From: Escherichia coli
GTDB lineage: Bacteria; Pseudomonadota; Gammaproteobacteria; Enterobacterales; Enterobacteriaceae
Length of the DNA: 64,000 bases
NCBI RefSeq assembly: GCF_044324875.1
Contig: NZ_CP172185.1
Direction: 5' to 3' (one strand)
Shown piece after piece: positions 31,212 through 38,360 of this stretch (positions are counted from its first letter, which is position 1; each line of letters begins with the position of its first letter). A model generated the notes under the pieces. The model was not told the origin of the DNA. It searched no databases and worked only from the letters and a program-made list of their open reading frames with translations. Both the position numbers and the translations under genes were made by a program.

Positions 31212-31922
31212 TCAGAACAGATTTTGCTCCTTCTTTGCACTCAACCCGCCGTAATCATTTATCGTCCGCCAGGAGACATGACACGGTGCTATTGCCTGAC
31301 ACCAGCTTGTCTGACGCTGGCTTTTAGGTGGCACAACTCCCGCATTACTTAACGCTTTACCATTTACGCTCACCTGAATCAGGTTAATGTAGTAAGGCGT
31401 TGGGTTAGTGAGTTGTACACCCTGCGAATTCCGTGTCCAGCGTAATTGTTGATAAGCTTCCAGCGGGTCGCCCGGCAAACCTTCGGGTCGCCAGAACAGT
31501 TTAAATACCGAGCGCATCGCCACTTTTACGCTCTGATTTTCAACTTTGCCGGATGGCACGCTGGCAATGCTTAACTCAAATAGCGTTTCGCGATCCACAG
31601 GCAAAATGTCGCTTTCCGTTCTCAGCAAGCGCAACGTGCCTGTAGTACCGGGCTTCAGGAGAACAAGTGGTGGAGCGACCAGTAGTGGTGCTGACCCTGT
31701 CGATGCTTCGCCCCCGGCCCAACGCGTTGGGCGATTGATTTTACTGTTAATAAGCCAGGATTCCTGACTGGTATTAGTCAGTGAAATAGATATCGATTCT
31801 CTGTCTGCCGGGAAGATAAATCGCGTTCCGCCAACCACCACTCCTGCCTGCAATTCCCCCGCCACCAGCAGCGATAAAACGGCAAAAATCGCGAGCGTCA
31901 ATCTGTTCCACGTATTAGTCAT
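31212..31922 (-). CDS. ycbF: Periplasmic fimbrial chaperone (PapD-like)
   Basis: Start taken at MTNTWNRLTLAIFAVLSLL with signal peptide; chaperone-family fold motifs. Confidence 0.8.
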   Translation of the reverse strand: MTNTWNRLTLAIFAVLSLLVAGELQAGVVVGGTRFIFPADRESISISLTNTSQESWLINSKINRPTRWAGGEASTGSAPLLVAPPLVLLKPGTTGTLRLLRTESDILPVDRETLFELSIASVPSGKVENQSVKVAMRSVFKLFWRPEGLPGDPLEAYQQLRWTRNSQGVQLTNPTPYYINLIQVSVNGKALSNAGVVPPKSQRQTSWCQAIAPCHVSWRTINDYGGLSAKKEQNLF

Positions 31923-32430
31923 AATGAAGTACAAATGTCGCGCTGGCATTCACTTTACCCGACTGCACATCGCTATTAACAGGTCGCAATTGCGCATAAA
32001 AAGTTAATGGCACCTTACCGCTATGTAGGCTGTAGTCTTTACTCGCCTGGTTAAGCGGAATCAATATTTTCGCATCATCCAGAATCGCAATTGCCAGCCC
32101 GCTGGCTGCATCCGTACCACTTTCAATGGACAGCATTTCGCTCTGCATTCCGTCGGGTGTTCCTGAAAAGGTAACGTCAACCGTGCTGACATCTGTTCCG
32201 CAATCCTGCAAATTAATGATGAAAGATTTCTCCGGGCCATAGTTCCCATGAGAAAAACGTGTCAGCGAGACATCGCCTAACTGCACATTGATTTGCTTGC
32301 TATCCTGTGCCAGCACGCATGTATTACGGCGAAACGATCCGCTGATGTTGACCGTGCCATCATGGGCAAATAGCTCACAACTCCCCGTTAAACCCAGTAA
32401 GCACAGAATCCAGATTATCCGTTTCAACAT
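31915..32430 (-). CDS. ycbV: Fimbrial-like protein
   Basis: Start taken at MLKRIIWILCLLGLTG; fimbrial subunit-like, C-terminal ATFVLHYD. Confidence 0.78.
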   Translation of the reverse strand: MLKRIIWILCLLGLTGSCELFAHDGTVNISGSFRRNTCVLAQDSKQINVQLGDVSLTRFSHGNYGPEKSFIINLQDCGTDVSTVDVTFSGTPDGMQSEMLSIESGTDAASGLAIAILDDAKILIPLNQASKDYSLHSGKVPLTFYAQLRPVNSDVQSGKVNASATFVLHYD

Positions 32431-32437
32431 CACTCCT

Positions 32438-32980
32438 TCACTGGTAAACCAGATCAAAATAGAGAACCGCCGTCGCATTACCGCCCGTAGCCCCCGCCTT
32501 TGTGGACTTATAGCGAAGTTGATATTTGAGTGTGTTATCCCCCGCTTTTAAGGGCGTAAGAGGCTGGACCTGATTGAGCGGGATTTCTTGCTGACTTTGC
32601 GCATCAAGAATTTGCACGGCAATCCCCGTTGCCATACCACCGCTTCCGCCTGTGTCAGTTAGTTTGAGTAGTGTCGGCGCAAGGGTGTCAGCCTCGCCGC
32701 TAAAAAGGACGTCCGCGCCAGTAATACCAGCGGCACAACCGGTGATATCGATATTCAAATCAGCAGCTGTGCTTACGGTATTCGCAGCCTGAAAATCACT
32801 GATATTAAAATCGCCAATATGAATATTTTGTAATGCGCTTTTGGTGGCAACATCACAGCCCTGATCGACCACATTACCATAAATATGCATACTGACTTGT
32901 TCAGGCCCAGCCATCCCGACATGGGTGTTAAGAAAGCTAAAGAACAAGATAACGTACTGAAATATTGTTTTTTTCTTCAT
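32438..32980 (-). CDS. ycbU: Fimbrial-like protein
   Basis: 180-aa ORF MKKKTIFQYVILFFSF with signal peptide; fimbrial subunit-like, C-terminal AVLYFDLVYQ. Confidence 0.8.
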   Translation of the reverse strand: MKKKTIFQYVILFFSFLNTHVGMAGPEQVSMHIYGNVVDQGCDVATKSALQNIHIGDFNISDFQAANTVSTAADLNIDITGCAAGITGADVLFSGEADTLAPTLLKLTDTGGSGGMATGIAVQILDAQSQQEIPLNQVQPLTPLKAGDNTLKYQLRYKSTKAGATGGNATAVLYFDLVYQ

Positions 32981-32991
32981 ACGTTCACGCG

Positions 32992-34062
32992 TTAATCAAA
33001 ATTTATTCTCACCGTCGCAGTGGCTTCAAAGCGCCCGGTTTCTGGTGGTACGCCTGTCGTGCTAACCGGATAGACATTCATTCGCGCGATACTGTCTGCA
33101 TCATCAGGAATAGAGAGCGGTAGTGTTCCACCCGCCGGGGAAATAATGTTGTTCTGGCTATCGGTCACCACAATGCCCACGCCAGGACGTGAAGTCTTAA
33201 TCGCCTGGGGATAGCTGGGGTCTGAGGTTGCCGTCAGACTCAGATTGACGTTAACTAACCCAGCGTTTCCAGTGTTACACCTGACAGGGATTGCGAGTTC
33301 AGCCGTTCTGGCCCCAAGAGGCTTATGCCCTAGAACACGAAAATTAGCCGCAAATACATCGCCCAGATCGACCTCGATTGTCTCTCCGGCATTGACGGAA
33401 CATGAGCCAAGTGAATTGATCGTGCCAGACAGGTAATACACTAAAACCGGGTCGCCTGACGACGTACAGGAATCCCCTGCGGGTATGTTGTAGCATTCAA
33501 ACAATCGTGCCAGCGTCATAGGAGGAATGACGACCGAGCCAATGAACGGCTGCAATATTTTCAGGGAAAAGCTACCGCTATTACCGCTAGCCCCCTGGCC
33601 GCCTAAACGTTGACCGCCGGGATCGCAAATATGCCATCGGGTATCCCCCCCGGTGCCTACGTTTTCGAATGGAACCGCCGTAGGAGAATTACCTTTAACC
33701 TGTAATAAAACCCTGGCGGCAAGATAGTCATTAATTTTGTACCAGCTGTCGCCTAAATAGACTAACGGTGAATCCGCAGCGAATGCCCATCTGCCACTCC
33801 TGACATTGTCTTTATCGCAATCACAAGAAACATAGTAATCATTCGATTCGTTCCACTGATAAAATTTGTCTTTAACTACTCCGGCCGTATTTTCTTCTTC
33901 ATCCAGGGTTTTAACGCCAAAATTGACGCCAATATACGGATTCCCCTGAGCGGTATGGCACTGCCCGGTATAAGCCATAGTTTGAGCGCACCATAGCATT
34001 AAGATGGCGGCAAAAAATAGTCGTAGTAATGACACGCATTTTTCTCCATAGATTATCTGCAT
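32992..34062 (-). CDS. elfG: Fimbrial tip adhesin-like protein
   Basis: 356-aa ORF, Cys-rich N-terminal domain plus C-terminal pilin domain. Confidence 0.8.
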
Positions 34063-36653: not shown

Positions 36654-36677
36654 CTCGCTCTCTTAACTGAAGACGGC

Positions 36678-37379
36678 TTACGATTTACAGTTGAGTTGCG
36701 GCGTTTCCGCCCCGTAGTCATTGATGGTTCGGTACGTTACGCTACTGTTTTGAGCACCCTTTGGCAGAGGGAATTGGTATTTATCAAAGGGGGAAATCAT
36801 TTGATTTTTAACTACTTTTCCACCTATTTTCAGGTCTGTCAGGGTAATGAAATAAGGTGTTGGGTTACTGACCGTAACCATGTCAGCTGACGAAGTGCAA
36901 CGCAGTTTCGCCGGAGCCTCGGCTAAGGGATACGCTAAACCTTTTGGTCGCCAGAAAAGTTTGATGACGCTTTGTGTGGCAATCTTCAGGGTATTGCCTT
37001 CTTCCCGCTTCGTTGTTGAAGGGACTGCCCGTACGCTGGTGAAGAAAAGAGTTTCTCTGTCTTTCGCCAACGGCGCGCCAATGTACATAATGCGTAACAA
37101 ATTCTCGTTTGCCGGATTCAGCACAAATAGCGGTGGTGTAATAATAAAGTCCGCTGATTTTTTATTATCTGGTGTCATCACCCATGACTGAATAAGATAA
37201 GGAACATCCGGACTGGTGTTACGTACACCCAGTGAAATTTGCTCTTCACCTTCCGAATAAACAAGACGTGTTGCTGCAAGTCCGACCCCACCTTTACCTG
37301 CCGCCCATGTGAACGAACAGCTGAGTAATATTGCCGTTAAACTTACGGTCACAATTCCCTTTGTTATGCAAGTTTTCAT
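36678..37379 (-). CDS. elfD: Periplasmic fimbrial chaperone
   Basis: 233-aa ORF with signal peptide; PapD-like. Confidence 0.85.
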   Translation of the reverse strand: MKTCITKGIVTVSLTAILLSCSFTWAAGKGGVGLAATRLVYSEGEEQISLGVRNTSPDVPYLIQSWVMTPDNKKSADFIITPPLFVLNPANENLLRIMYIGAPLAKDRETLFFTSVRAVPSTTKREEGNTLKIATQSVIKLFWRPKGLAYPLAEAPAKLRCTSSADMVTVSNPTPYFITLTDLKIGGKVVKNQMISPFDKYQFPLPKGAQNSSVTYRTINDYGAETPQLNCKS

Positions 37380-37461
37380 AAATAGTCACTCTTAAAAAAT
37401 ATGGATATCCCCTCCAGAACACTGGAGGGGGACTAATTAATAAAACAATTAATGTGTTCTA

Positions 37462-38004
37462 TTAATAATAGTTAATATGAAAATCCGTTACCGCATTAAC
37501 ATTACCTGAAGTCGCTTTACCCGTAGCGATATAATCAACTTTAAAAGTCACTGTTTGCTCAGCGGAATCCGCTAACTGAATATTCGACGTTTCAATACCG
37601 GGAGTTACCGATGTAGAACCATCTGGCAGATACATTTGTAGAGCAACATTCGTCGCTGCATCGGTGGAAGCCTGGTTGGCAAATGCTGTAGGTTGCACTC
37701 CGTCAGCCGTACCACTGAAGGTAAAAGTCGCATTTTTAGTTACAGTAACATCACAGCCTTCTAAGGCAATTGGTACATCAGTTTTAACGCCAGAGACTGC
37801 ACCATTAGTTTGCAACTTGGTGGCGCTGACATTTGGCAATGTGACTACTGAATCTTTGGTCGCAGCTACCAGCGAACAAGCTGGAGCAATGACTTTACCA
37901 TTAAATGTTACTTTGCCATCCGTGATAGCATTATCATCAGCCGCCATAGCACTGGACGTTGCACATACCACAGTTATAAACGCCGTCAATACACTTTTTT
38001 TCAT
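37462..38004 (-). CDS. elfA: Major fimbrial subunit
   Basis: Start at MKKSVLTAFITVVCATSSAMA signal peptide; C-terminal TDFHINYY beta-strand. Confidence 0.85.
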   Translation of the reverse strand: MKKSVLTAFITVVCATSSAMAADDNAITDGKVTFNGKVIAPACSLVAATKDSVVTLPNVSATKLQTNGAVSGVKTDVPIALEGCDVTVTKNATFTFSGTADGVQPTAFANQASTDAATNVALQMYLPDGSTSVTPGIETSNIQLADSAEQTVTFKVDYIATGKATSGNVNAVTDFHINYY

Positions 38005-38013
38005 CGTTATCAT

Positions 38014-38360
38014 CCTGATTTTTTCGTAAATATGATAATGCCTTTAAATGACATTGGACTTAATAATAACAACAATTGTCCGCCATTTAAATCAAGCATC
38101 CTTAATCCAATAAGTGACAAATCTTTAATTTATAGATTTCATGAATATTTTCTTATTACCTGAATGAGTAATTCATTGATTCAACATCGACTGAATATCC
38201 AATAAATAAATACACGTGATACATATCCCTCAATCCTTAGTTCATTTTTAGAAAAAGATACACAAAATTTATATTTGGCATTTTCTTGTCTCTCCGACAG
38301 ACTGACCGAATTGTTATCAATGTTAACAAAAAAAAGAACAATTGGTTATAAGGAGAGAGT
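38014..38360. promoter_or_regulatory. AT-rich divergent control region between elfA and ssuE
   Basis: About 350 bp, visibly strongly AT-rich with A/T tracts; lies between two divergent operons. Confidence 0.5.

Follow-up and report, generated by a model that had tools for sequence, protein, structure and literature searches.

The Ycb fimbriae of Escherichia coli, encoded by the operon elfADCG-ycbUVF (also written ycbQRST-ycbUVF, or 'ELF'), are assigned to the gamma-1 class (PMC7098969) and have been described as clade-specific, not core (Wurpel et al. 2013, PMC3559732). When the operons of K-12 and of O157:H7 Sakai are driven artificially, rigid fimbriae, biofilm and epithelial adhesion result, as set out in PMC7098969, in part through its account of Korea 2010. 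The same source credits biofilm formation to Korea 2010 and laminin binding to Samadder 2009, and the description 'cryptic but functional' is attributed to Korea 2010 both there and in PMC5797941. The other described systems that come closest are the bcfABCDEFG operon of Salmonella enterica and the fim and lpf clusters, which are also of gamma-1 type. We analyzed a 64,000-nucleotide stretch of E. coli contig NZ_CP172185.1 (hereafter, the window) that carries a seven-gene fimbrial cluster between pyrD and ssuE. This cluster is almost certainly the known elf operon, intact and at its normal chromosomal site. It is a classical gamma-1 chaperone-usher gene cluster of the laminin-binding type, in its ordinary and already known state.

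A six-frame list of open reading frames (ORFs) revealed seven head-to-tail frames on the minus strand, at 31212-38013, all devoid of internal stops. The region studied, 31212-38360, runs from the stop codon of ycbF to the last base before the ATG of ssuE. Pfam domains were assigned to all seven products with E-values from 1e-14 to 4e-222: a Fimbrial domain in four (ElfA, the C-terminal half of ElfG, YcbU and YcbV), the PapD_N and PapD_C pair in two, and PapC_N, Usher and PapC_C in one (Table 1). The K-12 operon (b0938-b0944) shares the pyrD/ssuE locus and the gene order, as well as a proposed SlyA site and an elfA-elfD hairpin discussed below. Six of the proteins are 94.7-98.3% identical to their K-12 counterparts (ElfD 97.0%, ElfC 97.2%, ElfG 94.7%, YcbU 98.3%, YcbV 97.7% and YcbF 95.3%). 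The K-12 ElfA differs more, being 83.2% identical in amino acids and 80% in nucleotides (synonymous divergence, dS, about 0.8) and one residue shorter (179 versus 180). The remaining lengths agree with those of K-12, ycbF differing only by the choice of start codon, and no frameshift was found in the window operon. The annotated loci of strain VCSW5 and K-12 MG1655 have the same genes, order and neighbors. Public collections already contain the exact sequences of all seven proteins under the name of E. coli fimbrial proteins, with contig counts per protein from 64 to more than 1000; they occur there only in assemblies of draft or Logan type that carry the label E. coli. We found no evidence that contradicts the elf/ycb identification.

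The original prediction, made from the letters of the sequence, had given these gene names, their order and their roles, and had called all seven genes full-length with signal peptides and no frameshifts. The ORFs, the Pfam domains and the synteny with K-12 and VCSW5 agree with it on each of these points, the frames being uninterrupted and of K-12-like length. The strand of the operon (minus) was absent from that description. For the signal peptides we relied on a heuristic pattern check, not on SignalP, and it bears the claim out: the N-termini of all seven proteins show a positive charge, a hydrophobic core of at least 10 residues and an AXA-like cleavage site, which is the pattern of a Sec-type signal peptide. 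The pilins additionally have a cysteine pair and a C-terminal aromatic motif. The operon makes up 11% of the window, with a GC content of 47.8% against 51.0% for the window.

Table 1. Positions of the elf genes, their control elements and neighboring features in the window, with the evidence for each (numbers after Pfam domain names are E-values).
Feature	Coordinates	Strand	Description	Evidence
elfA (ycbQ)	37462..38004	-	major pilin, 180 aa	ORF; Pfam Fimbrial 4.6e-17
elfD (ycbR)	36678..37379	-	PapD/FimC-type periplasmic chaperone, 233 aa	PapD_N 4.7e-36, PapD_C 2.9e-15
elfC (ycbS)	34053..36653	-	outer-membrane usher, 866 aa	PapC_N 1.6e-49, Usher 4.3e-222, PapC_C 1.1e-17
elfG (ycbT)	32992..34062	-	two-domain tip adhesin, 356 aa	Fimbrial domain, residues 211-356 only
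ycbU	32438..32980	-	minor pilin (BcfE/FimF-like), 180 aa	Fimbrial 1.2e-14; signal peptide
ycbV	31915..32430	-	minor pilin (FimF/BcfF-like), 171 aa	Fimbrial 8.5e-20
ycbF	31212..31949	-	second PapD-type chaperone (BcfG-like)	PapD_N + PapD_C
elfA-elfD hairpin	37409..37430	-	GC-rich hairpin CCCCUCCAG-UGUU-CUGGAGGGG	in the 82-nt elfA-elfD spacer
elfA-ssuE control region	38005..38360		divergent control region, 356 bp, 28.7% GC	composition; empty-site alignment
Candidate SlyA site	38007..38018	-	TCAGGATGATAA	same sequence as the SlyA site put forward for K-12, which lies 8 bp upstream of elfA (PMC5797941)
Candidate sigma-70 elfA promoter	38063..38091	-	TTTAAA, 17-nt spacer, TATTAT, extended -10 TG	consensus match only
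elf island	31202..38291		accessory island, ~7.09 kb	alignment to the E. coli 042 empty site
pyrD	30091..31101	-	flanking gene	
PyrD leader	31096..31169		next feature past ycbF	Rfam RF02373
ssuE	38361..38936	+	flanking gene	
IS200C-like copy	16181..16900			
IS200C-like copy	48629..49346			
IS200C-like copy	55755..56474		inverted	
naRNA4	42642..42720		nucleoid-associated noncoding RNA, derived from repetitive extragenic palindromes	Rfam

The individual products fit their assigned roles. The longest elfA frame starts at 38013; the annotated-type ATG at 38004 has a GGA 9 nt upstream, and the longer start is without such a signal. The predicted ElfA signal peptide is MKKSVLTAFITVVCATSSAMA|ADD, the cysteine pair is Cys43/Cys84 and the C-terminus reads ...INYY. 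ElfC scored 1747 bits against the NCBIfam equivalog PRK15193 (cut-off 995) and aligned over its full length with FimD structures (E = 3e-261), the FimD subfamily model giving 955 bits. The alignments of ElfD (E = 2e-51) and YcbF with SfaE/FimC both begin at mature residue 1. In PapD and FimC, Arg8 and Lys112 anchor the C-terminus of the subunit; both chaperones retain the equivalents in the same alignment columns, the arginine within GxxxxATR and the lysine within an xIKLxxRP motif. YcbF also passes its own NCBIfam model, PRK11385 (531 bits, cut-off 357); with the RefSeq-type start it has 245 residues, and with the K-12-type start at 31922 it has 236. For ycbV, the longest frame opens at 32478; the ATG at 32430 is preceded by a GAAGGAG Shine-Dalgarno sequence and the longer start is not. 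The best NCBIfam matches of YcbU are BcfE and FimF, both under the cut-off, and those of YcbV are FimF and BcfF.

The start of elfG and the end of elfC share 10 nt. ElfG carries about 175 additional N-terminal residues, a domain that is receptor-binding by homology, before the C-terminal pilin domain. Residues 33-356 align over both domains with PDB entry 5AFO (E = 1.9e-27), which two papers identify as LpfD, the tip adhesin of long polar fimbriae. Of the 19 positions at which ElfG differs from its K-12 counterpart, 13 fall in the N-terminal domain. Relative to VCSW5, the closest genome, it is 98.9% identical, with no differences in the N-terminal domain. A divergent adhesin domain, for which an alignment of ElfG with its homologues had been proposed as the check, was accordingly rejected: ElfG is not unusually divergent (94.7% identity to K-12, 98.9% to VCSW5), and its N-terminal domain is the same as that of VCSW5.

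The bcf operon of Salmonella enterica has the same layout gene for gene, namely pilin, chaperone, usher, two-domain adhesin, two minor pilins and second chaperone. Bcf proteins rank first or second among the NCBIfam matches of ElfA (BcfA), ElfD (BcfB), ElfG (BcfD, just behind LpfD), YcbU (BcfE) and YcbV (BcfF, just behind FimF); the corresponding match of YcbF is PRK15192, which we take to be the BcfG type. However, all Bcf equivalog scores fall far under the cut-offs (119 versus 247 for BcfA, 207 versus 365 for BcfB and, in a further case, 119 versus 517). Membership of bcf at the equivalog level was rejected on the cut-offs of BcfA, BcfB, BcfD, BcfE and BcfF, and the two systems are homologous only. 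The bcf operon presumably also occupies a different chromosomal location. With the fim and lpf clusters of the gamma-1 class, the locus shares a FimD-like usher, FimC-like chaperones and an adhesin that resembles LpfD over both domains. It differs from them in its second chaperone at the 3' end and presumably in receptor specificity, laminin and heparin being reported in the literature for elf orthologues.

A further contrast with fim is that the elf operon is without a fimB/fimE recombinase or an invertible switch. Phase variation is common among fimbrial operons, and expression could in principle be governed by a fimS-type inversion or by a pap-type Dam/Lrp switch; an 18-nt inverted repeat (38060-38077 and 38309-38326) does flank 231 bp of the upstream region. 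That repeat is weak, being AT-rich, imperfect and 78% complementary, and the segment has one orientation in all eight aligned strains. No recombinase gene lies in or beside the operon, and there are no GATC sites in 37950-38400. We rejected a phase-variation switch on these grounds, as neither credible inverted repeats nor a recombinase nor GATC pairs are present, and regard it as extremely improbable here.

The operon is accessory. We searched 5,426 complete E. coli genomes by megablast with positions 31000-38500 as query. At least 80% of the operon was present in 3997 of them (about 74%), at 93.7-99.0% identity, the best match being strain VCSW5 (99.0%), which is the sole genome to reach 99% over the operon. 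For comparison, the 25-kb flanks reach at best only about 99.1% identity to a genome of this set, and the lineage that the window comes from is therefore not represented in it. Approximately 1,336 genomes match only the last ~65 bp beside ssuE, and about 25% have a clean empty site. In one of these, E. coli 042, the pyrD-ssuE spacer is 236 bp long, and alignment to it delimited the elf island, which starts 10 bp after the ycbF stop codon and ends 69 bp before the ATG of ssuE. In 042 the island is replaced by 69 unrelated bp (L006 9927-9995), and no direct repeats were seen to flank it. Genomes with and without the operon hence differ in the DNA that lies more than 69 bp before the ssuE ATG and in that more than ~100 bp before the pyrD ATG. 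Intactness is the usual state among carriers: the operon was intact in 10 of the 13 annotated carriers that we inspected. Nord122 has a frameshift in ycbF, while strains 109 and CEC13004 (both ~5.4 Mb) share three lesions, a ycbF frameshift, an internal stop in elfG and an elfC frameshift, which points to inactivation across a lineage. IS1, an insertion sequence (IS), was found in two of 30 full-length matches taken across the range.

The spacer between elfA and ssuE is the most distinctive part of the locus in composition. The original prediction had called the ~350 bp upstream of elfA strongly AT-rich and typical of cryptic fimbrial promoters silenced by H-NS. The 347 bp at 38014-38360 have a GC content of 28.5%, which is the minimum for any stretch of that size in the window; only 0.06% of 347-bp segments are equally AT-rich, and all of these overlap the spacer. 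The part at 38005-38291 belongs to the elf island, and the remaining 69 bp, 38292-38360, are proximal to ssuE and present also in genomes that have no operon. Since those genomes are without 38005-38291, the AT-rich tract travels with the island, and by this alignment it is apparently a control region shared by the two divergent operons. Among eight strains the region is 91-99% identical (92% to K-12), and the 150 bp next to elfA are its most conserved portion.

Silencing by H-NS is the published view for the K-12 orthologue, and by orthology it would extend to the strain of the window. Three H-NS regulon data sets include the K-12 operon (PMC5797941). Overproduction of SlyA in K-12 raises the elf operon 2.7-fold and raises the divergent ssuEADCB as well, and SlyA binds the 355-bp K-12 ssuE-elfA intergenic fragment in an electrophoretic mobility shift assay (PMC5797941). 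Poor expression of the operon in the laboratory is ascribed to Korea 2010, as that work is cited in PMC5797941. The window carries a single exact match to TCAGGATGATAA, the site proposed for SlyA in K-12, against 0.01 expected. The upstream tract is markedly AT-rich and lies on accessory DNA, as expected of a silenced promoter (28.5% versus 51.0% GC; about 25% of genomes without the island). Two sequence scans gave no further support. The high-affinity nucleation motif of H-NS, which we take to be TCGATAAATT, was not enriched in the window (6 matches versus 4.4 expected), with one 9/10 match in the control region at 38127-38136. The promoter scan gave eight promoter-like sites in the control region versus 11.1 in shuffled sequences, and thus no excess; the match on the elfA side (Table 1) is a lead, not evidence.

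The same spacer might instead serve mainly the divergent ssuEADCB operon for sulfonate sulfur, with no silencing specific to elf. The ssuE gene starts directly beyond the spacer and points away from it, both operons rise in K-12 when SlyA is overproduced (PMC5797941), and the 69 bp proximal to ssuE are conserved even in elf-less genomes. These elf-less genomes, on the other hand, are without 38005-38291 and yet keep ssuE behind a pyrD-ssuE spacer of 236 bp, and the most conserved block is the one next to elfA. A role mainly in ssu control is therefore rather unlikely, although the two roles are compatible. A bolder proposal joins them: the insertion of the island would have replaced everything more than 69 bp upstream of ssuE, so that ssu and elf would share a region under H-NS and SlyA in elf-positive strains. 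We consider this a long shot. A still weaker form of it has the elfA allele of the window (class 2, described below), on a body of the GMF054 type, mark an expressed and niche-adapted fimbria; the closest relatives come from soil.

Within the operon, a GC-rich hairpin occupies the elfA-elfD spacer. Its RNA fold has an energy of -28.4 kcal/mol (z = -4.8), and none of 200 shuffled sequences was as stable. A run of six U residues (37394-37399) follows 9 nt past it. The hairpin is kept in eight strains although the adjoining elfA is only ~80% identical among them. By analogy to fimbrial operons elsewhere, it may act as a partial terminator or as an element that stabilizes the elfA mRNA, in either case raising the ratio of ElfA to the assembly proteins. 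The terminator scan did not call it, as the U-run is not immediate, and this counts against such a role. At the other end of the operon no intrinsic terminator was found after ycbF, the 96 nt downstream folding no better than shuffled sequences (z = +1.2). After 42 bp the PyrD leader follows as the next feature. As there is no terminator-like structure from the ycbF stop (31212) to that leader, read-through from elf into pyrD is conceivable.

We estimated the ratio of nonsynonymous to synonymous divergence (dN/dS) by the pairwise Nei-Gojobori method, comparing the window with six alleles. The values were 0.05-0.17 for elfA, elfD, elfC, elfG, ycbU and ycbV. For ycbF they were the highest of the operon, 0.27-0.64, consistent with relaxed constraint on the second chaperone. 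This pattern indicates that the operon has been under long-term purifying selection, weaker on ycbF. Standing against selection are the ycbF values themselves, the absence of the operon from about 25% of genomes and the lesions in some carriers.

The original prediction had also argued for selection, by another route: an operon that stays intact in a strain with active IS elements should still be under selection. The elements are there. The window holds three IS200C-like copies (Table 1) of 718-720 bp, mutually 99.9-100% identical, each encoding an intact Y1 transposase and matching Rfam STnc490, and none lies inside the elf operon. The copies directly follow the hairpins and T-runs of the ompA, asnS and mukB terminators, one copy behind each. 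Given that IS200 targets terminators and that the operon takes up only 11% of the window, finding no copy inside it is nearly uninformative. The argument from IS elements therefore fails; the conclusion it was meant to reach, purifying selection, stands in part, on the dN/dS of six genes. Regarding the copies themselves, the ompA-IS200 junction is absent from the whole set of 5,426 complete genomes, and the one between mukB and ldtD is common to strain SCU-171.

It may nevertheless be asked whether the operon is a neutral relic, silent and dispensable, and intact only as no disabling mutation has yet occurred. The frequency of clean empty sites, the frameshifts or stops in three of the 13 annotated carriers, IS1 in two of the 30 sampled matches, the poor laboratory expression (PMC5797941, citing Korea 2010), the high ycbF ratios and the uninformative absence of IS insertions are all what such a relic would lead one to expect. 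Moreover, pairwise dN/dS reflects long-term history and leaves room for recent relaxation in one strain. Yet six genes show ratios of 0.05-0.17 throughout six comparisons, in which dS reaches 0.9; the elfA-elfD hairpin and the control region are much better conserved than the synonymous divergence of elfA would suggest; and the same exact set of proteins recurs on dozens of contigs. A relic is, in our judgment, distinctly unlikely, and long-term purifying selection is the reading that we retain.

The gene elfA stands apart from the rest of the operon. It is dimorphic, with dS of 0.78-0.93 between the window allele and the K-12 class and ~80% nucleotide identity between classes. Among 4,013 elfA-positive genomes, identity to the window allele was 95% or more in 1,541, 80-90% in 2,270 and 60-80% in 195. 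About 38% of the elfA-positive genomes thus carry the window class ('180-aa', class 2) and about 57% the K-12 class, and there are at least two classes; RefSeq applies the name 'elfA' to the K-12 class only. Sliding identity places the body of the window operon at 99-100% to GMF054 and Nord122. In the elfA segment the window is 100% identical to VCSW5 and 79% to GMF054 and Nord122. With a body like that of GMF054 and Nord122 and an elfA like that of VCSW5, the operon is a recombinant mosaic; elfA, by this comparison, is swapped as a diverged allelic cassette between near-identical operon bodies. Mosaicism of this kind is typical of major-subunit genes.

Homology and the established knowledge of the chaperone-usher pathway allow a working model. 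Transcription would start in the island-borne part of the elfA-ssuE spacer, at 28.5% GC. By orthology with K-12, H-NS would silence it in the laboratory and SlyA would counter-silence it, leaving the fimbriae 'cryptic but functional'. The hairpin after elfA probably keeps ElfA above the assembly proteins. All seven products would be exported by Sec. ElfD and YcbF would then cap the pilin subunits by donor-strand complementation, and the usher ElfC would recruit the tip adhesin ElfG first and the adaptor pilins YcbU and YcbV next. ElfC would finally polymerize ElfA into the shaft by donor-strand exchange. Where it is present, the accessory island is under purifying selection, with elfA exchanged as a diverged cassette.

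Two features of the window outside the operon are of note. The IS200C-like copy in the asnS-ompF spacer sits ~420 bp upstream of the ompF start (49765), and the region upstream of ompF (49294-49801, 30.5% GC) ranks second in the window for AT-richness. The distal OmpR site F4 presumably lies further upstream of ompF than the insertion; if this position is correct, the IS200 copy could separate F4 from the proximal OmpR sites. The naRNA4 match falls between ssuB and pepN.

If the insertion of the island did replace the upstream DNA of ssuE, which we doubt, ssu and elf would be co-regulated in elf-positive strains and ssu would be regulated differently in elf-negative ones. As it stands, the finding is the correct annotation of a described accessory fimbrial operon and is in that respect of little significance. 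The locus is useful as a lineage marker, defined by the presence of the operon, a class-2 elfA and a recombinant body.

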